A stretch of 64,000 nucleotides of DNA from Sulfurimonas sp. (lineage in GTDB: Bacteria > Campylobacterota > Campylobacteria > Campylobacterales > Sulfurimonadaceae): assembly GCA_016744115.1 (NCBI GenBank), contig JADGEZ010000004.1, forward strand, positions 29,079-93,078. Direction: 5' to 3'. The notes under the pieces were generated by a model. That model was not told the origin of the DNA and searched no databases. It saw nothing but the letters and a program-made list of their open reading frames with translations. Below are positions 28,451 through 63,805 of the stretch, piece after piece. Made by a program: the position numbers and the translations under genes. The number at the start of each line of letters is the position of its first letter. Position 1 is the stretch's first letter.

Positions 28451-28795
28451 CTAAGGGAATAATATCCCTGTGTCATCTGTATAATGAAAATTAAGCATCA
28501 AGATACCTTTTGCCATCCTTTGTGATACATGGTCGTAGTGCCAACACACTATATCATTTGTTTTTGTCCATGGTTTGTGCATAAGCATATCATCTATGAG
28601 AATACAGCCACTATCCTCATTCTCATAATCTCTTAAAAATGATTTTATAGACTTCCATAATCTCTTGTCATCATGAAGTGTGTCATTTAATAATAGACCC
28701 TTTGTAAATATATCATGACTTTTACCTGTTAGTTTTGAGAGCTTAGTGATCTCTATCTTTTCAAAGGAATTTATTGCATTCTCATAGTTAAGCAC
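28451..28795 (-). pseudogene. N-terminal fragment of a DDE transposase (IS4/IS701-like), truncated
   Basis: ..CILIDDMLMHKPWTKTNDIVCWHYDHVSQRMAKGILMLNFHYTDD.. parallels the first catalytic-Asp block (DDT..K........YDH......KG...L) of IS4/IS701-type transposases. Only 114 aa remain and the rest of the enzyme is absent. Adjacent to repeats. Confidence 0.5.
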
Positions 28796-28964: not shown

Positions 28965-30101
28965 TTATCTTTCATTCAAAAAATATCTTAAACTTGTATC
29001 ACTCCATTCTTTTGAGAGTTGCAAATGTTTATCTATGGAAGCATATACTTTTTGAAAATCTTTATTTGCCGTACTCAACTCAGTTATAACATTTGTTAGA
29101 GCAATTTTTCCAACTTCTATCACATCTTTTGGATACTGCATAATATTTACATCTAAACTTTTAAGTGTTTGTAGTGCTTTGATATTCTCAGCATGAAATT
29201 CGCTTGTCATGTTTGAATTCATCTCACTTGATGCTACTTCTATCATAGATTGATGCTCTCTACCTAACTTATTCCAATACTTGTTGTTAAAAGTAAGTTC
29301 TAAAATAGAACCTGGTTCATGCCATCCTGAATAATAATAAGGAGCAACCTTGTAAAATCCCATCTTTATATCAAGAGCAGGTCCAACCCATTCGGTAGCA
29401 TCTATCACTCCACGCTCTAATGATGTATAAATCTCTCCAGCTGGAAGCAAGATAGGGTTCACTCCCATTTTTGCAAAAACTTCACCACCAAGTCCTGGGA
29501 TTCGCATCTTTAAACCTTTCATATCTTCTATAGATGTTATAGGTTTTCTAAACCATCCACCCATTTGAATATTGGTATTTCCTCCCATAAAAGGGTAAAG
29601 GTTATATTTTGCATACTGTTCTCTCCACAACTCTAAACCACCTCCAAAAAGCATCCAAGAGTTAATCTCTTCTGCTGTAAAACCAAAAGGAATGCCGCTA
29701 TAAAGTGAAAATGCAGAATTTTTACCCTTCCAATAATAAGGACCAGAATGAAAAGCATCAATCTGACCGCTAGAACAAGCATCAAATACAGCCAAAGCAG
29801 GAACTAAAACATTTTTTGGATAAAGCTTTACCTCTAAACTTCCTCCACTTATCTCTTTGATTCTTTTAACAAAATTCTCAACTCCAGTTCCCATAATAGG
29901 AAAATGAGCAGGCCAACTTGTAGCTAACCTGATGGTCGTTTTTTTATTTTTATTAACATGGATTGTTTTTTGTTTATTTTCTTTTTCTTTTACTTGCTTT
30001 GAATAGTCTATTGCTTGACGATTGCCTTCATTGCAACTACTAAAAGCTAAAGCAGCAGAACCAACACTCGCTGTTGCTAGGAAATCTCTACGATTCATCA
30101 T
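28965..30101 (-). CDS. TRAP-type transporter periplasmic solute receptor (DctP superfamily, COG4663-like) with Tat signal
   Basis: MMNRRDFLATASVGSAALAFSSC twin-arginine/lipobox leader. DctP-like core (GQIDAFHSGPYYW, GGWFRKPI, MRIPGLGGEVF, GVIDATEWVGP). No dctQ/dctM in the window. Confidence 0.75.
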   Translation of the reverse strand: MMNRRDFLATASVGSAALAFSSCNEGNRQAIDYSKQVKEKENKQKTIHVNKNKKTTIRLATSWPAHFPIMGTGVENFVKRIKEISGGSLEVKLYPKNVLVPALAVFDACSSGQIDAFHSGPYYWKGKNSAFSLYSGIPFGFTAEEINSWMLFGGGLELWREQYAKYNLYPFMGGNTNIQMGGWFRKPITSIEDMKGLKMRIPGLGGEVFAKMGVNPILLPAGEIYTSLERGVIDATEWVGPALDIKMGFYKVAPYYYSGWHEPGSILELTFNNKYWNKLGREHQSMIEVASSEMNSNMTSEFHAENIKALQTLKSLDVNIMQYPKDVIEVGKIALTNVITELSTANKDFQKVYASIDKHLQLSKEWSDTSLRYFLNER

Positions 30102-30576
30102 GCAAGGCCTTATGCGTAACCATCACCCCATCCGTGTCTGCATAAAGATAATCACCATTTTTAAAATTAACTCCACCAAAAGATAAAGGAACATCTCTTA
30201 AACCCTCGGTAATAGGGATATATTTTCTAGGGCAAGTGCCAAGTGCATAAAGTGCTACTGGAATCTCTTTTATTTGAAAAGTATCTCTTATGTAGCCATT
30301 GACAATTATCCCTGAATAGTTATTTTGTTGTGCAAACTTCATAAGGTTTTCCCCTACAACAGCAAAAAATTCAGCTTCTACATCTACTACCACGATTTTA
30401 TCAGTTCCATCTTCATCTCTAAGTAATTTTATAAGCTCAGAATTATTTTTATCTAGCTTAATAGTTATAACTTCTCCTCGACACTTATCAGCTCCGCCAT
30501 AATTTTTAAAATCATAACTTAATACATCTACTATTTCTGGATGTTCATCACAAAAGTCTGCTGTAAAAAAGTTCAT
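30088..30576 (-). CDS. RraA-family protein (RNase E regulator-like; 4-hydroxy-4-methyl-2-oxoglutarate aldolase/oxaloacetate decarboxylase fold)
   Basis: MNFFTADFCDEHPE..V.V..FKNYGG..GEVITIK..DKIVVVDV..A..GENL..A..N..SGIIVNGYIRD parallels E. coli RraA. ATG at 30576 has AGGAA upstream; the ORF-track start at 30606 adds a hydrophobic decapeptide. Confidence 0.75.
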   Translation of the reverse strand: MNFFTADFCDEHPEIVDVLSYDFKNYGGADKCRGEVITIKLDKNNSELIKLLRDEDGTDKIVVVDVEAEFFAVVGENLMKFAQQNNYSGIIVNGYIRDTFQIKEIPVALYALGTCPRKYIPITEGLRDVPLSFGGVNFKNGDYLYADTDGVMVTHKALHDES

Positions 30577-30664
30577 TTTTATTCCTAAAAGTAAATTTAT
30601 TATCATATTATAACCTTATTTTTGCTATCCTATCGTTTAAAATAATTATTAGGTTTTTATATAT

Positions 30665-31078
30665 ATGAAAGTAGTAACAGGCGTAGTTGGAAATGATATT
30701 CATGTTGTTGCAAATAGGTTAATAGAACTCTCTCTTGATGCAAGAGGTTTTGAAGTTTTTAATCTCGGAGTCAATACTTACCTTGAAGAGTTTTTTGACG
30801 CAGCTGTTGAGACACAGGCAGATGTACTTCTCATATCCTCGCTGAACGGCGAGGCAGAAGGTTGGGCGAGAGAGGTTAAACTTCTTAAATCAAAATACAA
30901 TACACTCGATGATATTATAATGGTAATAGGTGGAAATTTAGTTGTAGGTACGGCATCTGCGGATGAGATTGTGCCAAGATATAAAAAATATGGTTTTGAT
31001 TTGGTTTTTCATCAAGTTGATTTAAATACTGGTCTTGATACACTAGAGATGTACATTAAACAAAGAGATGTAAAATGA
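30665..31078 (+). CDS. Glutamate (methylaspartate) mutase small subunit S-like, cobalamin-binding
   Basis: 137 aa. VVGNDIHVVAN (DxHxxG-type motif with G->A), ISSLNG and VIGGNLVVG are B12-binding Rossmann motifs, collinear with Clostridium GlmS/MutS. Confidence 0.8.
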   Translation: MKVVTGVVGNDIHVVANRLIELSLDARGFEVFNLGVNTYLEEFFDAAVETQADVLLISSLNGEAEGWAREVKLLKSKYNTLDDIIMVIGGNLVVGTASADEIVPRYKKYGFDLVFHQVDLNTGLDTLEMYIKQRDVK

Positions 31079-32439
31079 GTTTACTACAAGAAGAAAGAGA
31101 GATAATTCTTAATAATGAGTTTATAGACCCCTTTGATTTTGCAGAAGTTGAAGAGTTTGTTAAAAATGCGAATGAAGAACTTTTTATATCGCACCACTTT
31201 GCAAAAAAAGAAAAAATGCTAGTACAACCTCGTGGAGGTTTTCCAACATACGAAAAACAGTTTGCCTTAAATGAGTTTTTTGTTGAAGCAAATGTTGATG
31301 TACTTCCTTTAACGATTGATTCAAACACAAGACTTAACGACTATACAACTGCAAGAAAAATGCTTCAACTCAGTGAAGAAAGCGAACATGATATGCTCAA
31401 TGGTTATCCACTTGTTACTCACGGGTATAAAGCCACAAGACAAATGATAACACATTTTAAAAAGCCTGTAAGCTTACGCCATGGTACACCAGATGCAAGA
31501 CTTTTGATTGAGGTGGCAATAGCATCTGGGATATTTGAGATAGAAGGAGGTCCTATTACCTATCTTCTTCCATATTCAAAAAACTTTCCACTAGATAAAG
31601 CTTTTCTTTACTGGAAGTATGTAGAAAAAGTATGTGCAAACTACTCAAAATTAAACTTGCCAATAAACAGAGAATCTTTTGGTCCTTTAACTGCTACGCT
31701 TGTCCCACCGTCTATCACGATAGTTATTCAGCTTCTTGAGATGTTACTTTCTTTAGAAGAGGGTGTTAAATCTTTCTCCGTTTCGTTTTCTCAAACAGGT
31801 TCTATGAATCAAGATATTGTAATGGGTTCGGTGATGAGAAAAATGGCTAAGTTTTATGCTCAGGAGATTGATTGTGCAGATGCCACTATAAATCTTGTGT
31901 ATCATCAATGGATGGGAGCATTTCCAACTGACAAAAAATTTGCACAACAGCTTATAAATATGTCCACCGTTATAGCCTCAATGGTGGGAGCTGATAAAAT
32001 CATCACTAAGACAAAAGAAGAAGCTTCAGGAATCCCAACAAAAGAAGCAAATGCCGAAACTGTTGCAAACACTCAATACACGCTTAGAATCTTAAACGGT
32101 CTTCCAAATATAACCGATAAAGAAGAAGAAGAGATTTTAACAATGGAAGTAAAAGCTATCATGGAAGCTGTCTTTAATGACTCAGCAGATACCTTATGGA
32201 GAAAAGTATTTAACTCTATCAAAAATGGGATTATAGATGTGCCTTTTTCTCCACATATTATAAATCACAATGAGATGATTACAATGCGTGATGCAAACAA
32301 AAACATTAGAATCATCAAGCGTGGAAATGTACCCATACCAGATAGATGCTTCGAGTACGAAAAATCTCAATGTGATTTAGGCAAAAGTAATACCTCTATT
32401 GTAAATGATATCATCCACGATATAGGGATTATGCAATGA
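31075..32439 (+). CDS. Glutamate (methylaspartate) mutase large subunit E-like
   Basis: Block-by-block resemblance to Clostridium GlmE: QPRGG, LPLTIDSNTR, LNGYP, LRHGTPDARLL, IEGGPITYLLPYSKN, FGPLTATLVPPS, HQWMGAFPTD, GIPTKEANA, IDVPFSPH. Confidence 0.85.
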   Translation: MSLLQEEREIILNNEFIDPFDFAEVEEFVKNANEELFISHHFAKKEKMLVQPRGGFPTYEKQFALNEFFVEANVDVLPLTIDSNTRLNDYTTARKMLQLSEESEHDMLNGYPLVTHGYKATRQMITHFKKPVSLRHGTPDARLLIEVAIASGIFEIEGGPITYLLPYSKNFPLDKAFLYWKYVEKVCANYSKLNLPINRESFGPLTATLVPPSITIVIQLLEMLLSLEEGVKSFSVSFSQTGSMNQDIVMGSVMRKMAKFYAQEIDCADATINLVYHQWMGAFPTDKKFAQQLINMSTVIASMVGADKIITKTKEEASGIPTKEANAETVANTQYTLRILNGLPNITDKEEEEILTMEVKAIMEAVFNDSADTLWRKVFNSIKNGIIDVPFSPHIINHNEMITMRDANKNIRIIKRGNVPIPDRCFEYEKSQCDLGKSNTSIVNDIIHDIGIMQ

Positions 32440-33623
32440 AAAATAAACTCTCCATTGATATAGGAAGCACCTACTTTAAAGTCGCAACAGATTCTTCTAT
32501 AGAGCAACACTTTAGGGATTTTAATAAAGATATACTTGATGACTTAACACACAAATGTGCCACAACTATTGAAAAGTTTAAAAAAGAAGACATATATATA
32601 TGTTCCTCTGCAAATGGAGGTTTAAGCACTTTAATCATAGGACTTAGTAACTCTTTTTCTCTTAAATATGCTACAAATATTGCCTTTAATTCTGGTATAA
32701 ATATTATAGAAACTCTCATCCATCAAAATATAGAGGAATATTCAATTCCAAGTTCTTTGATAGATGTTGTCATTATCGTTGGTGGTATAGATTCGGCTTC
32801 TGGCCTTTTTGGAGACTCCTTATACTCATACTTAGAAAAGCTTAATTATTCAAATATTGTTTTCGTAGGAAGTAATACCGATGCCCTTACCTTAGAAAAA
32901 AATATAAAAAATCTTGTCGTACTTCCAAACATCATTGATAATAAGCTTCATATTGTAGAAGAACATCTTAAAACCTACCTTACAAACCTATACCAACTTG
33001 ATATTGAGGGCAAGGAAGATATTAAAAACCTCTATGCAATAACTGCAAATCAAATTTATTCAACACCTTATGTTGTAAACAAAACTCTTGCCTTCATTGA
33101 TGCTAACTTTTCAGTTGTAAATCCTTTTATCTTGATTGATATTGGTGGGGCTACAACTGATATTCATTATTCAAAAGACTTAGTAGATGAAAATATTGTT
33201 ACAAGAAATGAGTATGATAGACTTGTTTTTAAAAAACTCGGTGTATATAAATCAAAAGAGTCTTTAATCTTTGCCGCACAGTCTAATGAGTTTACTTATG
33301 AGTTACTTACGCATTTAAAAGTAACAGAAAATATTTTTGAGCAAACAAGCGAAAAGGCAACAAAGGTACTGATGCAACTTGCAGTCTTTTTAGTTCTTTG
33401 TAAAATGTCTCATTATAAAAAAGCATATATCAATCTTAAACTAAACTCCATTAACTCTATAGTTCTTACTGGTGGAATTACAAAAGTTTTATCGGACGCA
33501 GAAGTTGAAAATATTATCTCATTTTTTTATATAAAGATATTAAACTCAAAGCATAAACCAAAAATAGTTATGGATTATAATTATGATATTTGGACACTAG
33601 GAATAAAAAACCTCAAGGAGTAG
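32436..33623 (+). CDS. GlmL/MutL-type glutamate mutase accessory (reactivase/chaperone) protein, ASKHA fold
   Basis: LSIDIGSTYFKV and LIDIGGATTDIH phosphate-binding motifs. Position within the mutase gene set. Confidence 0.7.
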   Translation: MKNKLSIDIGSTYFKVATDSSIEQHFRDFNKDILDDLTHKCATTIEKFKKEDIYICSSANGGLSTLIIGLSNSFSLKYATNIAFNSGINIIETLIHQNIEEYSIPSSLIDVVIIVGGIDSASGLFGDSLYSYLEKLNYSNIVFVGSNTDALTLEKNIKNLVVLPNIIDNKLHIVEEHLKTYLTNLYQLDIEGKEDIKNLYAITANQIYSTPYVVNKTLAFIDANFSVVNPFILIDIGGATTDIHYSKDLVDENIVTRNEYDRLVFKKLGVYKSKESLIFAAQSNEFTYELLTHLKVTENIFEQTSEKATKVLMQLAVFLVLCKMSHYKKAYINLKLNSINSIVLTGGITKVLSDAEVENIISFFYIKILNSKHKPKIVMDYNYDIWTLGIKNLKE

Positions 33624-33626
33624 AAA

Positions 33627-35201
33627 ATGTCAATCAACTGCATACGAACACTTATTGAAGATGCTGCGTTAAGTCATGCTGATAAAAAAGCTTTGATATT
33701 GGATCAAGAAAGTATTACTTACTCTGAATTATTTACCAAAGTAAACCAGGTAGCGTATTATTTAGCCGAGTTAGATCTGTCTCCTGATACAAGAATTGGA
33801 ATTTACTCTAGCAAGTCTATTGAGCAAGTTATCTCCATTTTAGCTGTTTTATCAACAAAATATATACTTGTACCACTCACAAAACTACTCAAACCCCAAC
33901 AAGTTGAGTACATTATTAATGACTGCGATATTAAGTGTATTATAACAGATAGCATAAAACATGAAACAATAAAAGACATAAATTTTAATGGTCATATTAT
34001 TTCGTATGAAACCTCCTGTAAGGAAATATCTTCCTTTGAAGAAATCTATAAGTACTATAACAAAACCTATGTTTGTAACATAAGTGGACATTCAAATGCA
34101 GTGATAACTTACTCTTTTGGAATTAGTGGAACTCCAAAAGGGATAGTAATTTCGCATAGAAATCTTATAAACTCCGCTCGTGTTGTTTCGCAGTATTTAG
34201 AGCTTAAAGAAGATGATGTTATCTCAGGCTTACTTATTTTTAACCTTGATTATGGACTTAATCAAATCTTTTCTACTCTTTACAAAAGAGCTACCCTAGC
34301 CTTACATGATTTTTTACTTCCTAATGATTTTTTAAATCACCTTATAGAGGATAAGGTAAGTGTTATTCCTTTGATGCCTTTTAATATTACGCAAATATTT
34401 GATGAAGATATGCATAAATTACCAAATAATGACTTATTTAAAAATGTAAGAATCATCACTTCATCTGGTGGAACGGTAAGTAAAAAGATGATAACAAACT
34501 GTAAAAATCTTTTTTCAAATGCCTCTTTTTTCTCTATGCACGGACTCACAGAAGCTTTTCGTTCTGCGTTTTTAGATCCAAGCCAGATTGAAATCCGACC
34601 TGATTCTATTGGAAAGGCTATTGCAGATGTTGAACTTTATGTTATCAATGAAAAAGGGCAAGAGTGCAAACCTAGAGAAGTAGGAGAGTTAATCCATCGA
34701 GGTGGTTACATCTATAAAGGTTTTTGGAATGCACCTGAGCAAAATGAGCAAAGGTTCAAGTCAATCCAAATCTTAAAAGATGTCATCAATATAGAAGGAC
34801 AACTTGTTGATGAGATAGTAGTAGCATCAGGTGATTATGTATATAAAGATGAAGAGGATTATTTATATTTTGTTTCACGACATGATGATATGATAAAAAC
34901 AAAAGGATTTAGAGTTTCCCCCCTAGAGATAGAATCCTGCGTAGCAAAAAATATAACTCAAATAGATGCTTCTGCCGTCTTTTCAGTAGAAAATGAAAAA
35001 GAGCAGGAGGAAATAGTTTTAGTATATACTGCAAAAAGTGAACTCTCTAGTAAAGAGATACTCTTTGAGTTAAAAAAGCATCTAGCAACCTACATGATAC
35101 CAAGTCAAGTTATCTATAAAAAAACTCTCCCTCTTGTTCAAAGTGATAAAAATAAGATAAATAAAGAAGAGTTGAAAAGAGCGTTAGAAACTCCTGACTA
35201 A
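33627..35201 (+). CDS. Stand-alone ANL-superfamily adenylating enzyme with A-domain-like motifs
   Basis: SFGISGTPKGIVISHRNL (A3), FNLDYGLNQIF (A4-like, with Asp), SMHGLTEAF (A5), GELIHRGGYIYKGFWN (A6), SGDYVY..YFVSRHDDMIKTKGFRVSPLEIE (A7/A8), LPLVQSDKNKINK (A10). Confidence 0.8.
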   Translation: MSINCIRTLIEDAALSHADKKALILDQESITYSELFTKVNQVAYYLAELDLSPDTRIGIYSSKSIEQVISILAVLSTKYILVPLTKLLKPQQVEYIINDCDIKCIITDSIKHETIKDINFNGHIISYETSCKEISSFEEIYKYYNKTYVCNISGHSNAVITYSFGISGTPKGIVISHRNLINSARVVSQYLELKEDDVISGLLIFNLDYGLNQIFSTLYKRATLALHDFLLPNDFLNHLIEDKVSVIPLMPFNITQIFDEDMHKLPNNDLFKNVRIITSSGGTVSKKMITNCKNLFSNASFFSMHGLTEAFRSAFLDPSQIEIRPDSIGKAIADVELYVINEKGQECKPREVGELIHRGGYIYKGFWNAPEQNEQRFKSIQILKDVINIEGQLVDEIVVASGDYVYKDEEDYLYFVSRHDDMIKTKGFRVSPLEIESCVAKNITQIDASAVFSVENEKEQEEIVLVYTAKSELSSKEILFELKKHLATYMIPSQVIYKKTLPLVQSDKNKINKEELKRALETPD

Positions 35202-37547: not shown

Positions 37548-40472
37548 TTAAATCTCTTGTACTACCTGAGTTAAATATTTATCTAACTCAATCTCCAAAA
37601 TATCAGTATTGATTGGTTTTGCAATAAATCCATCCATTCCTGCTTCCGTAAATCTTCTCTTATCACTATCTAAGGCACTTGCTGTTAAAGCTATGATTGG
37701 TGTTAAGATAAGAGATTTTTGAGCTTCGTATTCTTTTATCTCTAGCATTGCTTCTATCCCATTTTTGTTTGGCATATTCTCATCCATAAGTACCATATCA
37801 AATTTTTCTTTTTTAAATATACAAACCGCTTCAACCCCATCCTTAGCTACTGTATAATCTACCCCATAATCATCGAGTATCAAGCAAATAAGAATTTGGT
37901 TTGTTTTGTTGTCTTCTACAACTAAAATAGAACCTTTATATTGAATCTCACATTCTTCATCTGAAACTTCTAAATCATCTATTATGTTAATATTTTTAAT
38001 TTCACTATCATTGAGAGCTTGAATAATTGATTTTGGAATAAAAGGAGCATATAGTGCTTGGATATGCTCTATATTTGCTAATTTAATTGTATTTGATCTT
38101 AGCATTGCAATAGCAGGTATTTGAGCCTCAATAATCTCTATATTATATTCATCATCAGGAACAAAGAAAAGTAGATCATATCCATCTGTTTGATAAGTAT
38201 CTAGTTTAATAATATGTTCAACACCAAAGTCATTAAGATACTTTTGTATAAGATTGACACTTGATTTACATTCTTTACAGGTATTTAATATTGCAAATCG
38301 TAATTTTGACACACTTTGAGTATTGACAAGTTGCAGGGGATTTTTTTCAATAATCTCTATAGGTATTTCTAAAGTAAATGTCGATCCTTCTTCATTCTCA
38401 CTTTTTAAATTAAGTTCTCCACCCATTAAATTTGCTAGATTTAATGAGATAGAAAGTCCAAGCCCTGTTCCACCATATTTTCTAGTTGTTGATCCATCGG
38501 CTTGTTCAAATGCAGTAAAGATTTTTTTTTGATTTTCTTTAGAAATCCCTATTCCACTATCCTGTATAGAAATAATGAGAGCATCATCTTTAGTACTTAC
38601 AGTTACTTTTATTTCACCATTGGCAGGGGTAAATTTAATAGCATTACTGAGTAAATTAGATAAGATTTGTTTAACTCTCACCGAATCAATATTTATAGTT
38701 TTAGGTAAATTTGGATCTATATAAACAACATAAACGATGTGTTTTTCATAAGCTTTTGATGTGAAGAGCATAACTGCGTTACTAAACTCTTCAACACTTT
38801 GGACAGGATGTTTATCTATATGAAATTGTCCACTCTGAATTTTAGAAAAATCAAGAATGTCATTAATAATTGTGAGTAAAGATTGTCCACTTGTATAGAT
38901 AATATTAAGATAATTCAGAGGCTTTTCATCTTTTATCTGTTTTTTTAAAATACTTACAAAACCAAGGATAGCGTTAAGAGGTGTTCTTATCTCATGAGAC
39001 ATATTTGCTAAAAATTCATCTTTTACAACCTGAGCTTGGATCGCATCATCTCTTGCTGTTGTAATAACTTCTATCTGATTTTGAAGTTCTAGCGTTTGAT
39101 TAAAAACTTTATCTTCTAAAGATGTATTTAACCTTTCTAAACTATATGTTTGCTCTTTTATTTTAGCAGTTATGAGCTTTATAAGTTTATTCATAAACAC
39201 TTTTAATTCTTTAAGATTTGGGTGAATAGGGGATGAGTATAGTTTTTCTGAAAAATAACCATTTTGCATAAGCTGAACTACTTGAGTTGTCTCTGTAATG
39301 AACTCCATATCTTGTTCAAAATTTTCTTGTATTATAAGCATCTCTTTATTTATATTTTGAGCCATGTCATTGAGTTCATCTTTGGAATTTGTGTTTATTG
39401 GTAGAGGCAAAGTACTTCTAAAATATAAAAATTCATAAAAATTCTTGATACCTCCATCTAATTGTTTTATAGAATACTCAATTGTATTGGCTATATAATA
39501 ATTAGCATAAAATATCAAAAGAGTTATGATAGAAATAAAAGCAATTAATGCATATAATGCGAATCTTAAACTTTCTTGCTCATCTTCAATCGCTAAATAA
39601 ATCTCGCTAAATAGATCATGCCCAAAAGCATGAAATTCATTTATTTTTTGTGTTGATACATTAAACCATTTTGGTGCATCTATTGAAAAGTGATTATGAG
39701 TAATTTCGTATCTTGTTTGTATCAGGTATGATTCTTCAAACTTTTTATGAATATTTATAAGTGACTGAGAAAATGAAGAGTGTTCTAGTAGATTATTAAC
39801 ATACTTGTAATGCTTCTTTTGTTGATTGATTAAATTATTAAGTTTATATATTGTTTGCTGAGAAACATCTTGTGATTTTATGATCCCTAATACAAAAGCC
39901 CTTTCTTGACCAGCAATTTCTTGAAGTTCAAGGAGTTGTTGTACCGCTAAAATATAAGTAGCAATAAGTTCATTACCAGAGTTAATTCTTAGACTATCTA
40001 TAAAGTTTAGCAAACTATTGTTAAACGCTGTATAATATTTATATCCATCAATTTGTAGTATATTTTTCGTATCAATATTAGTTCTTATTTTTTTTAGTTT
40101 TTTTGCATGCAATTGGCACTCTTGAAATAGCTTTAAGTGTGCTTTTGTTAAGAATTTTGAATCTTTTATATTGGATGTGAATACTAGAACATTATTGTCT
40201 GTATTATTTCTATGTTCTTGAAGCTTATTTATAAAATAATCTGATTTTTTATAATTATGATATGCTTTACTCAAACCTCTTTCAATTTGTATCCTGTGCA
40301 TTAAATCACTAGATTTTTCAATTAAATCTGCATGTACTATAAATTTTGTATTTGATTGTAAATGTGTATAATACGAATATATGAAGTTAGAAGAAAGTAG
40401 CAAGAGTGCTAAAACTGGAAATATCGTAATTACAAGTAATTTTTGCTTTATTTTTAAAGTTAAAAGTTTCAT
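37548..40472 (-). CDS. Hybrid sensor histidine kinase/response regulator with periplasmic NIT-like (nitrate/nitrite-sensing) domain
   Basis: TM helix, then IQIERGLSKAY and ELQEIAGQERAFVLG (NIT-type ERG motifs), a second TM, HAMP-like region, H-box FLANMSHEIRTPLNAI, N/G boxes (LSNAIKFTP, DSGIGI, GGTGLGLSI), a degenerate receiver-like spacer, and REC (ILVVEDNKTNQ..VLMDENMPNKNG..ALTAS). I prefer the start at M32 (40472). Confidence 0.8.
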   Translation of the reverse strand: MKLLTLKIKQKLLVITIFPVLALLLLSSNFIYSYYTHLQSNTKFIVHADLIEKSSDLMHRIQIERGLSKAYHNYKKSDYFINKLQEHRNNTDNNVLVFTSNIKDSKFLTKAHLKLFQECQLHAKKLKKIRTNIDTKNILQIDGYKYYTAFNNSLLNFIDSLRINSGNELIATYILAVQQLLELQEIAGQERAFVLGIIKSQDVSQQTIYKLNNLINQQKKHYKYVNNLLEHSSFSQSLINIHKKFEESYLIQTRYEITHNHFSIDAPKWFNVSTQKINEFHAFGHDLFSEIYLAIEDEQESLRFALYALIAFISIITLLIFYANYYIANTIEYSIKQLDGGIKNFYEFLYFRSTLPLPINTNSKDELNDMAQNINKEMLIIQENFEQDMEFITETTQVVQLMQNGYFSEKLYSSPIHPNLKELKVFMNKLIKLITAKIKEQTYSLERLNTSLEDKVFNQTLELQNQIEVITTARDDAIQAQVVKDEFLANMSHEIRTPLNAILGFVSILKKQIKDEKPLNYLNIIYTSGQSLLTIINDILDFSKIQSGQFHIDKHPVQSVEEFSNAVMLFTSKAYEKHIVYVVYIDPNLPKTINIDSVRVKQILSNLLSNAIKFTPANGEIKVTVSTKDDALIISIQDSGIGISKENQKKIFTAFEQADGSTTRKYGGTGLGLSISLNLANLMGGELNLKSENEEGSTFTLEIPIEIIEKNPLQLVNTQSVSKLRFAILNTCKECKSSVNLIQKYLNDFGVEHIIKLDTYQTDGYDLLFFVPDDEYNIEIIEAQIPAIAMLRSNTIKLANIEHIQALYAPFIPKSIIQALNDSEIKNINIIDDLEVSDEECEIQYKGSILVVEDNKTNQILICLILDDYGVDYTVAKDGVEAVCIFKKEKFDMVLMDENMPNKNGIEAMLEIKEYEAQKSLILTPIIALTASALDSDKRRFTEAGMDGFIAKPINTDILEIELDKYLTQVVQEI

Positions 40473-40716
40473 TATTTTTCTTTTGTAGTGTAATTTCAGA
40501 TTATTCTTGAAGCTGACTTTAAACCAGAAATTTACAAAGTCAAGCTTTAGATAAAATCGCTCCAAATTTAACTTAATGGAACATCCATATTATAGCCGAG
40601 TATTTGCTATAAATCAAATTTATTTTTACTCAATATTTTCCTATTTTAATCTATTACATACTCTCAATTTAAAATGTTCTATTGATAAAAGACTAATTAC
40701 CTACAGTTATTAATAC

Positions 40717-51286: not shown

Positions 51287-52489
51287 TTGCTTAATTTACA
51301 AATGATATACGATGCTAGAGAGAGAATAAAAAATATTATTGTAGATACACCATTTTCTTACGCTCCAAATTTAAGTAAACTGACTGATTGTGAGATTTAT
51401 CTCAAAAAAGAAAATCTTCAAATTACAGGTGCATTTAAAATTCGTGGGGCTTACAATAAAATAGCCTCATTAAGTGACACTCAAAAAGCTTCAGGTGTAG
51501 TGGCTGCGAGTGCGGGAAATCATGCACAAGGTGTAGCCTTATCCGCATCAAAGTTTAATATCAAAGCTGTTATTATCATGCCAGAATCTACACCATTAAC
51601 AAAGGTTAATGGTGTAAAAGGTTTTGGAGCAGAAGTGATTTTAGCGGGTACTAATTATGATGAGGCTTATGCTTACGCAAAAGAGTATGCAGAGAAAAAT
51701 TCTTTAACCTTTGTTCATCCCTTTGAAGATGATGAAGTGATGGCTGGTCAAGGAACTCTTGCCTTAGATATTTTAGATTCTTGCCAGAATGTAGAGGCTA
51801 TAGTGATACCTGTTGGGGGAGGGGGTCTTATCTCTGGTATGGCTCTAGCAATTAAAGAAATAAATCCAAATATCAAAATAATTGGTGTCGGTGCTAGTGG
51901 TGCTCCAGCATTAAAAAACTCATTTTCACTTAAAAAAGCTGTAGATTCTAAAAGTGTAAGAACAATAGCTGATGGTATAGCGGTTCGTGATACATCAGAA
52001 GTTACACTTTCTCTTATCCTTAAATATGTAGATGAGTTTATAAGCGTAGATGATGAAGAGATAGCAAGTGCTATTTTATTTTTACTTGAAAATCAAAAGC
52101 TAGTTGTAGAAGGAGCAGGGGCAGTTGGTGTTGCTGCCTTACTTCATAAAAAACTAGAGCATTTAAAGGGGAAAAAAGTAGCAGTAGTTTTAAGTGGAGG
52201 GAATATGGATGTTACCCTTCTTTCTGTGATTATAGAAAAAGGTCTTCTTAAATCTGGTAGAAAAATGAATGTAACAGTAACTTTGATTGATAAGCCAGGT
52301 TCTCTGCATAGATTTACTGAAATCATAGAAGAGTTAAATGCAAATATCGTGCATATTTCTTATGATAGGACATCCATCTCGCTTGATTATGGTGATGCTC
52401 ATGTTACGGTTCATATGGAAACTAAAGGTAAAGAACATCAAATAAAAATCCGAAAAACACTTAAAAATGAGGGATATTTAAGAGATTAG
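51287..52489 (+). CDS. ilvA: Threonine ammonia-lyase (threonine dehydratase) with one C-terminal ACT-like domain
   Basis: PLP Lys motif ENLQITGAFKIRGA, SAGNHAQGVA, GGGGLISG, plus a ~80-aa regulatory tail. Confidence 0.85.
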   Translation: MLNLQMIYDARERIKNIIVDTPFSYAPNLSKLTDCEIYLKKENLQITGAFKIRGAYNKIASLSDTQKASGVVAASAGNHAQGVALSASKFNIKAVIIMPESTPLTKVNGVKGFGAEVILAGTNYDEAYAYAKEYAEKNSLTFVHPFEDDEVMAGQGTLALDILDSCQNVEAIVIPVGGGGLISGMALAIKEINPNIKIIGVGASGAPALKNSFSLKKAVDSKSVRTIADGIAVRDTSEVTLSLILKYVDEFISVDDEEIASAILFLLENQKLVVEGAGAVGVAALLHKKLEHLKGKKVAVVLSGGNMDVTLLSVIIEKGLLKSGRKMNVTVTLIDKPGSLHRFTEIIEELNANIVHISYDRTSISLDYGDAHVTVHMETKGKEHQIKIRKTLKNEGYLRD

Positions 52490-52493
52490 CATT

Positions 52494-54620
52494 ATGAAAG
52501 CAATAAAAGATAAAAATTTTACAAATCCAATTATACTTATAAAAATACTTAATAATGGTGATGTGTTTATCGTAGATGATAAAACTACAATAAGAATCCT
52601 AGAAAAAGAAAAACTAGATTTAATAGACGGATATAAAGCGAACAACTTTCATCTAAGATATAGAAATAGTGTAGTGGCTTTTTCTAATGATTCTAAATAC
52701 TTTGCAACTGTTAGTGCAGACTCTAACGAAGCTAAACTATACAGTATGCAAACGAGAAAAATAATTCATGTAGTGGATAAACATAATGGAGAAGTCTCTT
52801 GCGTAGGGATAGATAACGCCAGTAAATATATGTTTTCTTGTGGTGATGATGGAAAAACTTTTGCTACAGATATTGAAAGTGGAGACTTAGCTTTTGCCCT
52901 TCCTATTCATATTGACGCTGTTACTGATATTGCATTTTCATCAAATGGGAATTGGGTAGCAACATCTTCTTATGATAGAAAAATATCTATTTTTAATCTT
53001 GCGATGATGGCACCTAAGCATAAACTAAGGTATCACTCTGTTGCGGTTATGAAAATATCTTTTATTGGTAAAGATAGGCTTTTGAGTATAGATAAAAATA
53101 ATACAGCCATTATATGGAACATATATACTGGAAAAGTTATAATAAGATTAAAAGGTATCCATGATGATGTTACACAGATACTCATAGCCCAAAACAATAA
53201 GTTTCTTTTCTTAGGGACTTCTCTTGGTTATGTGTTAGTCTATGATTTAGATACTTACGAGCAAATATCAAGAAAGTATGTAAAAACAAGAGAGTCAATA
53301 AGTTCTCTGGCTTTTGATGAAGAATCTAAATATTTATATGTGGCTTCTAAGAGTTGTGATTTATCTGTATATGATATTTATGGAGGTGAAGACTATATAA
53401 AATCTTTATTAAAAGAGAAAAAATATGATAGTATCCATTTTTTTATAGAAACAAATCCTCTCTTAGCCTATACAAAGATTGACATTTTGTTGTCAAAGCT
53501 TTGGGAAAATACACTTAAAAAAGCAAAAATATCTCTTCAACACGGTGATAGACTTCAGGCTATTGCATTGTTTCATAATTTTAAAAATATTCCTGAAAAA
53601 AATAAAATAATGAATCATATACTTGAAGAGTATGTGGAATATGATAGGTTTGCAGAGTTAGTAGAGCAAGATAAAGTTTCTCTTGCCTATGGTTTACTTC
53701 AAAAGCACCCTTTATATAAAGAAACAGTAGTATATAAATCTTTAGACGCAAAATGGAAAAAAGCATTTTATTTAGCACAGAAGTATATAATGGACCCAAA
53801 AGGGATAGATAAAGCACGAGAAATTTTAGCACCGTATAGAGGGATAAGTGATAAAACTAAACTAACCCAAGAGCTATTTGCCCAGGGTGAGGTATATAAA
53901 AGATTTAAAGTTTCTCTTGGACAAAAAGATTTTAAAATTGTTTTTGAACTTATAAAATTACATCCATTTTTAAAAGAGTTCCCTGAATATAAGTCTATCA
54001 TGGACTATGGAGATTCTTTATACATTAAATCTCAAAAGTTTATGGATGAAGATGATACACATTCTACTACAAAGATTCTAAGAATTCTTATTGATTTTCC
54101 AGATTTCTCAACAGAGGTTAAAGAATTAAGCCATAATATAGAAGTCAAACAAAAGTTTTATAAAGCTATCAGAGACAAGGATATGATTAGTGCCTATAAT
54201 ATGTTGAGCTTATCAGAAGACTTATTAGAAACCGAAGATGGCAGAGATTTACAAGATAGATGGAATCGAGACCTCATCAAAGCAAACTCTTTTGCAATGG
54301 AGGGTAATGTAGAAGCAATAAAAGTGATTTTAGATGATTATATGGTTGTAAATTCAAAGTATGTGTCATTAGGAAGTATTTTTGGTTGGTGCTATATGAC
54401 ACAAATAGAACGAGCTATAGAACATCAAAGAGAACAAGCATTTATAGAAAACGGAATAAAAAATTATATATTAAGTTTTGGTTTACAAGATCAAATTTTA
54501 AGTTTATTTGAAATATTTATATCCGAGTATTCTTCTTCAAAATTAAATTTAAGGCTTTTAAGTAAAGGTGATTTGAAAATGTGGCGACCATCTATGATTG
54601 TAAATTCTATTTTAGATTGA
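52494..54620 (+). CDS. WD40 beta-propeller protein with ~400-aa C-terminal helical domain
   Basis: Repeated blade signatures (VAFSNDSKYFATVSAD, VSCVGIDNASKYMFSCGDDG, DIAFSSNGNWVATSSYDRKISIFN, LLSIDKNNTAIIWN, LAFDEESKYLYVAS), followed by a helical repeat-like region. Confidence 0.7.
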   Translation: MKAIKDKNFTNPIILIKILNNGDVFIVDDKTTIRILEKEKLDLIDGYKANNFHLRYRNSVVAFSNDSKYFATVSADSNEAKLYSMQTRKIIHVVDKHNGEVSCVGIDNASKYMFSCGDDGKTFATDIESGDLAFALPIHIDAVTDIAFSSNGNWVATSSYDRKISIFNLAMMAPKHKLRYHSVAVMKISFIGKDRLLSIDKNNTAIIWNIYTGKVIIRLKGIHDDVTQILIAQNNKFLFLGTSLGYVLVYDLDTYEQISRKYVKTRESISSLAFDEESKYLYVASKSCDLSVYDIYGGEDYIKSLLKEKKYDSIHFFIETNPLLAYTKIDILLSKLWENTLKKAKISLQHGDRLQAIALFHNFKNIPEKNKIMNHILEEYVEYDRFAELVEQDKVSLAYGLLQKHPLYKETVVYKSLDAKWKKAFYLAQKYIMDPKGIDKAREILAPYRGISDKTKLTQELFAQGEVYKRFKVSLGQKDFKIVFELIKLHPFLKEFPEYKSIMDYGDSLYIKSQKFMDEDDTHSTTKILRILIDFPDFSTEVKELSHNIEVKQKFYKAIRDKDMISAYNMLSLSEDLLETEDGRDLQDRWNRDLIKANSFAMEGNVEAIKVILDDYMVVNSKYVSLGSIFGWCYMTQIERAIEHQREQAFIENGIKNYILSFGLQDQILSLFEIFISEYSSSKLNLRLLSKGDLKMWRPSMIVNSILD

Positions 54621-62335: not shown

Positions 62336-63805
62336 ATGAACTTCATTCAAACTCGTGGATGCGATGCAAACAGAGTAATATCAGTTAGTTTTTCACAAGC
62401 TATTTTAAGCCCAATAGCTTCATTTGGAGGTCTTTATGTACCTGAGAATTTCCCTCATTTAGGAGAAGAATTTTTAAGTAAACATATAAACTCATCTTAT
62501 AAAGAACTTGCATCAGATTTATTGTCCCGTTTTGAAATAGATATTAGTCAAGATGTGATAGATGAAGCACTTGAACTTTATGATAAGTTTGATGATGTTA
62601 CGAATCCTGTACCTTTAGTTAAATTAAAAGAAAACCTTTATATAAGTGAGCTTTATCATGGACCTACTCGTGCATTTAAAGATATGGCACTCCAACCTTT
62701 TGGAAAAATTCTCTCTTGTGTAGCACAGAAAAGAGAAGAGAACTATCTTATATTAGTCGCTACTAGTGGTGATACAGGTCCAGCAGCCTTAGAGACTTTT
62801 AAAAATCAAAAAAATATTCAAGTAGTATGTTTGTATCCTGCCAATGGAACATCAGATGTTCAGAGACTTCAAATGGTTACGGAAGATGCAAGCAATCTTA
62901 AAGTCATTGGCATTAAAGGTAATTTTGATGATGCACAGTCAGCACTCAAAAATTTACTAGCATCGAAAAGTTTTATAAATAGACTAAAGGAAAGAAATAT
63001 CTCTTTATCTGCTGCAAACTCTGTTAATTTTGGAAGAATTATATTTCAAATTATTTATCATATTCATAATTATTTAGAATTACTAAGACAAGAGGCGATT
63101 GGCATAGGTGAAAAAGTATATTTAAATGTTCCTAGTGGTAATTTCGGTAATGTTTTAGGAGCTTATTATGCTATGCTAATGGGGCTTCCAGTTGAGAAAC
63201 TTCTTATATCTTCAAATGAAAATAACATCTTAACTCGTCTCATTCAAACAGGTATTTATGATATTAGAGATGCAGATTTAAAACAAACAACATCTCCTGC
63301 TATGGATATACTTAAATCATCAAATGTTGAAAGAGTACTCTTTAGTCTTTACGGATCAGATAGAACAAAAGAGCTAATGAATGATCTTGATAGTAAGCAT
63401 ATTTATACGCTTACTGCAAAAGAGCTAGAAAAATTACAAGAAATCTTTGTAGCAGATTTTTGTTCTGATATTGAGGGTAAAAAATATATAAAATCAGCCT
63501 TTAATGATGGATACTTAATGGATCCTCATACTGCGACATGCTTTAAAACTCATGAAACATTATCAAATCCAAATATAAAGAGTATCATCTACTCAACGGC
63601 TGAGTGGACAAAGTTTTCAACAGTAATAGCAAATGCTTTAACAGGCGAAGTTGATGCTAAAGACAGTGAAGCTTTAAAAGCTATATCTAAAGAAGCAAAT
63701 GTAGAGATACCAGAAATGATTAAAAGTTTATTTAATAAAAAAATAGTTCATGAAAGTATCATTGAAAAAGAAGATATTGAAAAAGAAATATTAAAGTTTT
63801 TATAG
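62336..63805 (+). CDS. thrC: Threonine synthase (long form)
   Basis: PLP Lys motif GPTRAFKDMALQ, ATSGDTGPA, and NSVNFGRI. Confidence 0.9.
   Translation: MNFIQTRGCDANRVISVSFSQAILSPIASFGGLYVPENFPHLGEEFLSKHINSSYKELASDLLSRFEIDISQDVIDEALELYDKFDDVTNPVPLVKLKENLYISELYHGPTRAFKDMALQPFGKILSCVAQKREENYLILVATSGDTGPAALETFKNQKNIQVVCLYPANGTSDVQRLQMVTEDASNLKVIGIKGNFDDAQSALKNLLASKSFINRLKERNISLSAANSVNFGRIIFQIIYHIHNYLELLRQEAIGIGEKVYLNVPSGNFGNVLGAYYAMLMGLPVEKLLISSNENNILTRLIQTGIYDIRDADLKQTTSPAMDILKSSNVERVLFSLYGSDRTKELMNDLDSKHIYTLTAKELEKLQEIFVADFCSDIEGKKYIKSAFNDGYLMDPHTATCFKTHETLSNPNIKSIIYSTAEWTKFSTVIANALTGEVDAKDSEALKAISKEANVEIPEMIKSLFNKKIVHESIIEKEDIEKEILKFL

Follow-up and report, generated by a model that had tools for sequence, protein, structure and literature searches.

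Glutamate mutase has been described in anaerobic glutamate fermentation and in the haloarchaeal methylaspartate cycle, and it supplies 3-methylaspartate for a few actinomycete antibiotics. The presence of its genes in a Sulfurimonas genome, directly upstream of an amino-acid-type adenylating enzyme, raises the question of what the mutase product is used for. We addressed this question in a 64-kb stretch of DNA from Sulfurimonas sp. (GenBank assembly GCA_016744115.1, contig JADGEZ010000004.1, positions 29,079 to 93,078 of the forward strand, ~31% G+C), referred to hereafter as the window. Its positions 30665-35201 carry four intact, translationally coupled genes in the same strand, encoding the GlmS and GlmE subunits of glutamate mutase, a GlmL-type accessory protein and a stand-alone adenylating enzyme of the ANL family, which we designate ANL. 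An earlier note on this DNA had proposed that the operon makes 3-methylaspartate and activates it, or a derivative, for attachment to an acceptor. The mutase residues, the ANL pocket and the conserved neighbourhood support this proposal, in which we infer the ANL substrate and the acceptor. One copy of a module that has spread horizontally lies in the window; in it, a divergent rraA-like gene faces the glmS-glmE-glmL-ANL operon.

The mutase subunits and their operon

The four genes are packed with 4-nt overlaps at the glmS/glmE and glmE/glmL junctions and a 3-nt gap between glmL and the ANL gene, at exactly the coordinates that the earlier note had given, and profile searches with hidden Markov models, which that note had suggested, recovered the expected family for each of the four products. 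GlmS, read initially as a cobalamin-binding small subunit, matches methylaspartate mutase S (NF002612) with 154.7 bits against a cutoff of 110, as well as the B12-binding family PF02310. Its D11-I-H13-V-V-A16 (His-on B12), SSL and GG motifs are invariant in 76-78 orthologues, the final Gly of the His-on motif D-x-H-x-x-G being replaced by Ala (A16). GlmE scores 395 bits with PF06368 (Met_asp_mut_E, cutoff 26.6) and aligns with the solved C. cochlearium GlmE over 411 residues (276 bits). The blocks that had been matched to the clostridial enzyme by eye hold up in this alignment: R66 (QPRGG), R100 (NTRLN) and R149 (LRHGTPD), which make up the Arg claw, E171 (IEGG) and Y177 (ITY), both in the block IEGGPITY, and Y181 (PYSK) are all identical in the window GlmE. 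These six positions, which we take from the 1CCW literature to be the residues that contact glutamate, are invariant in 83 of 84 orthologues.

A plasmid search with GlmE (tblastn, PLSDB) found the module not to be plasmid-borne and placed the window GlmE clade at 35-39% identity to annotated GlmE from replicons of E. coli, Salmonella, Prevotella and Peptoclostridium. Because identity to annotated GlmE is this low, the clade appears to be a distinct branch with an unchanged active site. The product of the third gene, which in all loci is situated between glmE and the ANL gene, matches PF13941 (MutL, 86.8 bits, cutoff 27), in agreement with its earlier assignment to the GlmL/MutL type; it is a divergent, shorter member of that family and presumably an ATP-dependent chaperone or reactivase of the mutase. 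Judged by their sequences, GlmS and GlmE have all the features expected of an adenosylcobalamin-dependent glutamate mutase (EC 5.4.99.1).

The block shares with the clostridial operon (mutS/glmS - mutL/glmL - mutE/glmE - methylaspartase; structures 1CCW, 1I9C and 6H9E) its sigma, epsilon and L-type proteins, the six substrate residues, the His-on B12 motif and the arrangement in a single operon. It differs in its S-E-L gene order, in a strongly divergent GlmL, in the low identity of its GlmE to plasmid-encoded catabolic GlmE and in its hosts, which are aerobic or microaerobic marine bacteria rather than fermenters. In the clostridial order, the slot taken here by the ANL gene belongs to methylaspartase, which the ligase thus replaces, and neither mesaconase nor citramalate lyase accompanies the block. 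Among window open-reading frames (ORFs) of at least 100 aa we found no methylaspartase, mesaconase/fumarase or citramalate lyase, as first remarked in the earlier note, and no CoA-transferase, condensation domain or carrier protein, whose absence next to the operon had likewise been pointed out. The ANL protein itself contains no condensation or carrier domain, and six-frame phmmer searches with AcpP and DltC found no carrier protein either in the window or, across 80 genome loci, in the 10 kb around the ANL gene. Methylaspartase, mesaconase and citramalate lyase are also missing from the annotated neighbour families of ~100 loci, and polyketide synthases (PKS), non-ribosomal peptide synthetases (NRPS) and decarboxylases from the recurring or individually annotated neighbour families. 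Across the window and the neighbour families, gene content indicates that the module is not the catabolic mesaconate route.

The ANL enzyme and its substrate pocket

ANL matches PF00501 (AMP-binding, 195 bits) and, weakly, AMP-binding_C, and its best solved relatives over the full length are the NRPS adenylation (A) domains LgrA, TycA, GrsA-PheA and ApnA, with CoA ligases scoring lower. A comparison with the beta-amino-acid enzyme VinN had been suggested in the earlier note. With only the A3 to A6 part of ANL as query, the top solved match is VinN (3WV4/3WV5/3WVN, 64 bits), followed by the TycA variants 5N81 and 7YWK, the former of which represents, with 5N82, a TycA variant engineered for beta-Phe (PMC11253843). 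The ANL-VinN alignment is gap-free from the A4 block through the beta13-beta14 loop, and the sequence RPDS(I/V)G is common to both proteins. The determinants of VinN are D230, F231, S299, K330 and R331, and its loop has one residue fewer than that of alpha-amino-acid enzymes (PMC11253843).

After correction of the VinN numbering for a 16-residue tag offset in the PDB chain, D230, S299 and R331 align with identical residues of ANL (D208, S280 and R312), F231 aligns with another aromatic residue (Y209), and K330 falls on F311 and is unmatched. All five ANL positions are invariant in 81 of 81 orthologues, including D208, the A4 Asp (FNLDYG) on which the amino-acid-type assignment had originally been based. 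With four of the five determinant positions of VinN type, the pocket fits an acidic amino acid and not a fatty or aryl acid. We also considered ANL as a fatty- or aryl-acid CoA ligase and regard this as unlikely, since Asp208 and Arg312 are invariant and A domains match more closely.

The closest named family is TIGR03098, 'acyl-CoA ligase (AMP-forming), exosortase A system-associated', which is also the best NCBIfam match of ANL (431.9 bits, below the cutoff of 592.35). Members with 33% identity, from S. meliloti pSymB and from a plasmid of Aureimonas, share the A4 Asp and a pocket loop (GLTEAFRS...RPDSIGKAI) identical to that of the window ANL, and carry Ala and Thr at the positions of Tyr209 and Ser280 in the window clade. 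The wider ANL/TIGR03098 family looks like a set of activators of acidic amino acids, to which the window clade appears to have added the two 'pusher' residues that VinN uses. Such residues point to 3-methylaspartate or a close analogue, activated at C4, as the probable substrate of ANL.

TIGR03098 members adjoin a pyridoxal phosphate (PLP) decarboxylase of family TIGR03099 and a phosphopantetheine-binding protein, whereas the window ANL has neither; it is accompanied by a mutase instead of glycosyltransferases, and its clade reads SDKNKINK in the A10 region where TIGR03098 reads PNGKFDR. The window ANL is thus a sister of TIGR03098 and not a member. The remodelled A10 region (residues 506-512) departs from the usual PNGK(I/F)DR: K510, which aligns with the canonical A10 Lys, is variable, and K508 is conserved in 73 of 81 orthologues. 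As a separate observation, the TIGR03098 trio lies inside glycosyltransferase-rich loci (L102 6902-10031 and L103 4871-9792 in our locus numbering) and follows the logic of VinN/VinO/VinL, which by analogy suggests that these polysaccharide loci attach a decarboxylated acidic amino acid. We found no publication on this trio, in a literature search that was thin on subscription journals.

Spread of the module, its partners and its upstream region

A survey of one genome per GTDB species returned 168 encoding stretches, the best 80 of which were analysed as genome loci. ANL orthologues occur at 71-83% identity in many assemblies, and the block as a whole is conserved at 57-90% identity in ~100 loci of Campylobacterota, Gammaproteobacteria and Alphaproteobacteria. 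The Campylobacterota setting of the earlier note therefore stands, but is too restricted, since the block also extends across marine Gamma- and Alphaproteobacteria. Among the best 80 loci, the carriers are Sulfurimonas, Arcobacter, Aliarcobacter, Poseidonibacter and Halarcobacter in the Campylobacterota; Colwellia, Thalassotalea, Paraglaciecola, Neptuniibacter, Amphritea, Motiliproteus, Halioglobus, Oceanicoccus, Cellvibrionaceae and Spongiibacteraceae in the Gammaproteobacteria; and one Parasphingorhabdus in the Alphaproteobacteria. The neighbourhood comparison that had been suggested shows a conserved gene order: where the contig permits, glmL, glmE and glmS lie upstream of the ANL gene in the same order in 79, 74 and 70 of the 80 loci, respectively, and recurrence of the four-gene order in ~100 independent loci is more than chance.

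A search of 50%-identity representatives with ANL was flooded by giant NRPSs via summed domain scores and gave one useful match (P0122, 58% identity), which led to a divergent metagenome clade (ANL 57-59%, GlmE 70-72% identity) with the same arrangement. Two loci of this clade, L084 (3946-8791) and L085 (2154-8822), have insertions of 5-6.7 kb between glmE and glmL, one of them with a 1701-aa ORF. A contig labelled Candidatus Paceibacteria (L043, JBGSBO010000012.1) has the gene order and flanks of the Aliarcobacter loci L048 and L051, and is probably misbinned rather than a CPR carrier of the block. Several other neighbours were considered and set aside. The HIT protein and M23 peptidase genes downstream in the window are not conserved elsewhere and are not part of the system, and the cytochrome c-like (f5), OvoA-like (f13) and GGCT-like (f22) families of Arcobacter, MetRS, FBPase and MobB of Sulfurimonas, and MoeA and ThiG of the divergent clade track host lineage and are not module parts.

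Three further gene families accompany the block (Table 1 lists those adjoining it in the window). The frame of the earlier note was too narrow and missed the divergent rraA-like gene and the AspC-like and keto-acid-binding partners.

Table 1. Coordinates of the block, its divergent partners and the region between them (window positions).
Feature	Position	Strand	Family match
TRAP-type periplasmic solute-binding protein, Tat signal, TakP/keto-acid-binding subfamily	28965..30101	-	PF03480 DctP 199.7 bits
RraA-like protein, class II aldolase/oxaloacetate decarboxylase fold	30088..30606	-	PF03737 109.6 bits; NF006875 140.9 vs cutoff 136
Divergent intergenic region with conserved block TATTATAACCTTATTTTTGCTATCCT, candidate back-to-back promoters for rraA-like gene and glmS	30607..30664	.	
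glmS, cobalamin-binding sigma subunit of glutamate (methylaspartate) mutase, 137 aa	30665..31078	+	NF002612, PF02310
glmE, catalytic epsilon subunit of glutamate mutase, 454 aa	31075..32439	+	PF06368
glmL/mutL-type ASKHA accessory protein, 395 aa	32436..33623	+	PF13941
Stand-alone amino-acid-type ANL adenylating enzyme, 524 aa; candidate 3-methylaspartate (C4-carboxyl) ligase	33627..35201	+	PF00501

The rraA-like gene starts 58 bp from glmS, or 88 bp away if Met11 (30576) is the start, as it probably is. It adjoins the block in divergent orientation in 56 of the 80 genome loci, and does so in the clade of 57-59% identity as well. Enzymatic relatives of this family include the P. putida HMG/CHA aldolase and T. 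thermophilus RraA, and their motif R-D-x2-E/D comprises a catalytic Arg, a metal-binding Asp and an acidic third residue. Like the HMG/CHA aldolases/oxaloacetate decarboxylases, the RraA-like protein has the PF03737 fold and the Arg-Asp pair: 57 of 57 neighbours share R107-D108; E. coli RraA, which lacks the pair, reads R-Q there. It differs from those aldolases in carrying Gln for the third acidic residue of the motif, in having no aromatic-degradation context and in being paired with a mutase operon.

An AspC/TyrB-type aminotransferase gene (NF006719, 571 bits) stands beside the rraA-like gene in 23 gammaproteobacterial loci. The median pairwise identity of its products is 78%, next to 80% for ANL, 79% for GlmL and 75.5% for RraA, a value that in our judgement is higher than vertical inheritance of a housekeeping aspC would lead one to expect across three orders. 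The TRAP binding protein gene overlaps the rraA-like stop by 14 nt, in the window as in other Sulfurimonas loci, and the two genes are probably co-transcribed because of this overlap. The best solved relatives of the binding protein are 4pet (296 bits), 5cm6, 7ug8 ('Ketoacid-binding protein') and 2hzk (TakP). In 7-8 further Sulfurimonas-type loci its gene likewise stands next to the rraA-like gene, with 78-81% identity. As no DctQ/DctM membrane genes neighbour it, either in the window or in the related loci of Sulfurimonas, the binding protein is an orphan. The RraA-like enzyme, the aminotransferase and the binding protein most plausibly serve a branch to 2-oxo acids, given the R-D pair of the first, the aspartate type of the second and the keto-acid type of the third.

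The region between the divergent genes carries an element, TTT[GT][GC]TA[TC][CAT][ACT]T. Of 69 upstream regions, 16 contain it, compared with 2% of background windows, and in 14 of these 16 it precedes the glmS ATG by 41-45 nt (mostly 42-43). It is found in the window (30620-30645) and in both Sulfurimonas-type and gammaproteobacterial loci (e.g. L003, L012, L027, L030, L056); its presence at a fixed distance in both groups suggests that the regulatory region travelled with the genes. The form TTTG(G/C)TATC(A/C/T)T resembles an extended -10 box. About 30 nt further upstream lies a ATTCTAGCA-type element (reverse complement TGCTAGAAT), common to Campylobacterota and Gammaproteobacteria, and the two elements are candidate back-to-back extended -10 promoters. 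An Rfam scan of the entire window returned no riboswitch or leader, and a promoter and terminator scan gave results not above shuffled expectation.

The binding protein gene is directly followed by a fragment of an IS701-family transposase (28451-28795, -, 114 aa; NF049921, 61.9 bits), at the place where other Sulfurimonas loci have a gene of 410-430 aa; the fragment and the flanks of the block, which differ from theirs, suggest a local rearrangement. The window also encodes a one-ACT-domain threonine ammonia-lyase, IlvA (51287-52489, +; TIGR01127, 540 bits), and a threonine synthase (62336-63805, +), so that the canonical 2-oxobutyrate route coexists with the mutase block. A 708-aa WD40 beta-propeller protein (52494-54620, +) and a hybrid histidine kinase of 1005 aa that has a nitrate/nitrite-sensing (NIT) domain (37548-40565, -) are unrelated to it.

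Proposed pathway, competing explanations and implications

The mechanism that we put forward joins these elements in a pathway with one main line and one side branch. GlmS and GlmE, kept active by the GlmL-type ATPase, would convert L-glutamate into (2S,3S)-3-methylaspartate, which ANL would bind in the manner of VinN, with Asp208 holding the amino group and Arg312 the free carboxylate, and with Tyr209 and Ser280 pressing the substrate against the loop. The equilibrium of glutamate mutase favours glutamate, and adenylation of the C4 carboxyl by ANL would use ATP to pull this unfavourable equilibrium forward. ANL would then transfer the acyl group to a thiol or an amine encoded outside the block; candidates for it are CoA, a carrier protein whose gene lies elsewhere, and ammonia or a small amine. 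In the side branch, the aminotransferase would turn 3-methylaspartate into 3-methyloxaloacetate, which the RraA-like enzyme would decarboxylate to 2-oxobutyrate and CO2; a route from 3-methylaspartate through methyloxaloacetate to 2-ketobutyrate is documented (bioRxiv 10.1101/2025.08.26.672309; PMC7476758). We consider this composite mechanism, in which the mutase makes 3-methylaspartate, ANL captures it by ATP-dependent ligation and part of it is diverted to 2-oxo acids, to have about an even chance of being correct. Greater confidence attaches to its core, namely that the mutase is real and that ANL consumes its product, and less to which acceptor is used and to what the side branch does.

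Several observations weigh against this mechanism. On the mutase side, GlmE falls 9 bits short of the equivalog TIGR01503 (380.9 bits, cutoff 390.1), and the GlmL-like ORF reaches only 70 bits with the GlmL equivalog NF040745 against a cutoff of 475, which is why we call it divergent. In two metagenome loci (L087, L096) the ANL gene occurs without glmSEL in an otherwise syntenic context. The substrate assignment of ANL relies on five pocket positions, one of which, that of VinN K330, is Phe here. Over its full length VinN is not the closest solved relative of ANL, so that the resemblance could be convergent or coincidental. An AlphaFold2 model built on a 25-sequence alignment, whose members are 74-83% identical to the window ANL, has a mean predicted local distance difference test score (pLDDT) of 38.5 and is unusable. 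Because of these last three points, we infer rather than demonstrate the ANL substrate. In the carrier searches of the window and 80 loci, no acceptor gene is encoded near the block. As for the side branch, position +3 of the RraA-like motif is Gln in 47 of 57 sequences where the family motif has Glu or Asp. The rraA-like gene is not within the 10-kb neighbourhood in the Aliarcobacter clade, and a branch to 2-oxobutyrate is unneeded for isoleucine in this organism, since IlvA and threonine synthase are both encoded in the window.

In a competing explanation, which overlaps with our side branch, the main purpose of the module is the 'glutamate mutase pathway' to 2-oxobutyrate, and hence to isoleucine, with a net conversion of 2-oxoglutarate to 2-oxobutyrate and CO2 without ATP or NADPH. 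It differs from our mechanism in which arm matters, and makes ANL peripheral or regulatory. According to recent accounts, this pathway goes back to Abramsky 1962 and Phillips 1972 and operates with a promiscuous AspC and spontaneous decarboxylation (PMC7476758; bioRxiv 10.1101/2025.08.26.672309). The module shares with it the mutase and an aspartate-type aminotransferase, and the RraA-like protein would be a co-conserved candidate decarboxylase. The AspC/TyrB-type gene in 23 gammaproteobacterial loci, the rraA-like gene in 56 loci with its invariant R-D pair and the keto-acid-type binding protein probably co-transcribed with it all speak for such a role, as does the fact that the pathway is biochemically known but has no dedicated aminotransferase or decarboxylase assigned in these sources (PMC7476758; bioRxiv 10.1101/2025.08.26.672309). 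Nevertheless, the tightest partner of the mutase is the ANL gene, encoding an ATP-consuming ligase that would have no role there. The aminotransferase and rraA-like genes form separate transcription units that are not nearby in some clades, IlvA and threonine synthase are encoded in the same window, and methyloxaloacetate is said to decarboxylate spontaneously (bioRxiv 10.1101/2025.08.26.672309). We therefore consider this explanation unlikely, and the presence of IlvA, the lack of a nearby rraA-like gene in Aliarcobacter and the idle ANL weigh against the side branch as the whole story; it may be an arm for overflow or detoxification.

A beta-amino-acid or 3-methylaspartate unit could alternatively be fed into a secondary-metabolite or cell-surface pathway whose carrier and downstream enzymes lie elsewhere. 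The vicenistatin system offers a parallel, pairing a mutase (VinH/VinI) with an ANL enzyme, VinN, whose pocket has the same Asp, aromatic, Ser and Arg pattern and whose short beta13-beta14 loop aligns with ANL free of gaps; the sister family TIGR03098 also works beside an acyl carrier protein (ACP) and a PLP decarboxylase. By analogy, the block may function like the front end of vicenistatin-type starter-unit synthesis, yet it is not that system, because it has no ACP, decarboxylase or PKS. Besides counterparts of VinL (ACP) and VinO (PLP decarboxylase), it lacks a second ligase and an acyltransferase, it has Phe at the position of K330, and it occurs as a compact stand-alone unit in Proteobacteria and Campylobacterota. 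We judge this explanation improbable, given that searches of the 10 kb around the ANL gene detected no ACP or peptidyl carrier protein in 80 loci, that the neighbour families surveyed include no PKS, NRPS or decarboxylase, that the flanks are unrelated, lineage-dependent housekeeping genes, that small-genome chemolithoautotrophs carry the block, and that 70-90% identity across classes is atypical of secondary metabolism. It is very improbable, in turn, that the mutase acts on a glutamate analogue, such as 4-hydroxyglutamate formed from pyruvate and glyoxylate by the RraA-like aldolase and the aminotransferase, with ANL activating the rearranged product. RraA-like enzymes are aldolases for 4-hydroxy-2-oxo acids, a transaminase is co-conserved, and GlmE, at 35-39% identity to plasmid-annotated catabolic GlmE, lies just under the equivalog cutoff; but all six glutamate-contacting residues are unchanged, no positive evidence points to another substrate, and the rraA-like and aminotransferase genes are dispensable in some clades. 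Ordinary glutamate fermentation through mesaconate, with the remaining enzymes elsewhere and ANL as an acyl-CoA ligase for an organic acid such as mesaconate or propionate, is scarcely credible. Acyl-CoA ligase subfamilies do score well among NCBIfam models (PRK06187, 232 bits), and the search for the missing enzymes covered the 64-kb window of this genome. Against this stand the absence of methylaspartase, mesaconase and citramalate lyase from the window and from the annotated neighbour families of ~100 loci, the invariant amino-binding Asp208 and pocket Arg312, and hosts that are respiring marine bacteria and sulfur-oxidising autotrophs.

Returning to capture of 3-methylaspartate by ANL, an amide such as 3-methylasparagine is a realistic product class, by analogy with other pairings of a mutase with a C4-activating ligase. 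In streptolydigin biosynthesis, an AsnB-like amidase acts on 3-methylaspartate. A Methylobacter plasmid (NZ_CP091425, L105 2847-8207) encodes, one after another, asparagine synthetase A, a B12-binding protein, a hypothetical protein of 505 aa, a GlmE-like protein with 31% identity and an EamA exporter, and may represent an independent mutase and ligase system for an exported 3-methylasparagine-like compound. Separately, on a Roseibium aggregatum plasmid (L104 639-8069), the gene for a 664-aa GlmE-containing protein is grouped with those for an NRPS adenylation protein, an aromatic amino acid lyase and an amino acid racemase; here an alphaproteobacterium uses the mutase in the style of secondary metabolism. 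A more far-reaching possibility, which we regard as rather doubtful when its two arms are taken jointly, is that 3-methylaspartate is the true metabolic hub of a self-contained, widely shared B12-dependent marine pathway. One arm would lead from 2-oxoglutarate to 2-oxobutyrate as the first 'glutamate mutase route' with a genetic definition, and would rely on a dedicated aminotransferase and a 3-methyloxaloacetate decarboxylase of RraA-like type. Along the other, a carrier-independent ANL would make a new C4 derivative, be it a CoA thioester, an amide (3-methylasparagine) or a macromolecule conjugate. The module as observed differs from the published glutamate mutase pathway in that the tightest partner of the mutase is an ATP-dependent ligase and in that IlvA is encoded in the same window.

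The question whether the block had already been characterised can be answered as far as the literature search reaches: we found no paper on the four-gene block, in a search that was thin on subscription journals and whose negative outcome is not proof, and none linking glutamate mutase with Sulfurimonas, with RraA or with a non-actinomycete AMP-binding partner. The parts are of known kinds; as far as we can tell, their carrier-free combination, the RraA-like and aminotransferase partners and the marine spread are undescribed. Glutamate mutase chemistry is found here in a compact module, conserved at 57-90% identity across three bacterial classes. Among its hosts are marine sulfur oxidisers that are abundant (Sulfurimonas, Arcobacter) as well as heterotrophs (Colwellia, Neptuniibacter, Halioglobus). 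Since the enzymes are small and soluble and some hosts can be cultured, the hypothesis is directly testable. If it is true, the module would provide a first set of candidate genes for the glutamate-mutase route to 2-oxobutyrate, long an orphan, and a 3-methylaspartate-derived product made without the usual carrier-protein machinery, and would constitute an unrecognised B12-dependent function in marine microbes, with a bearing on their need for cobalamin.

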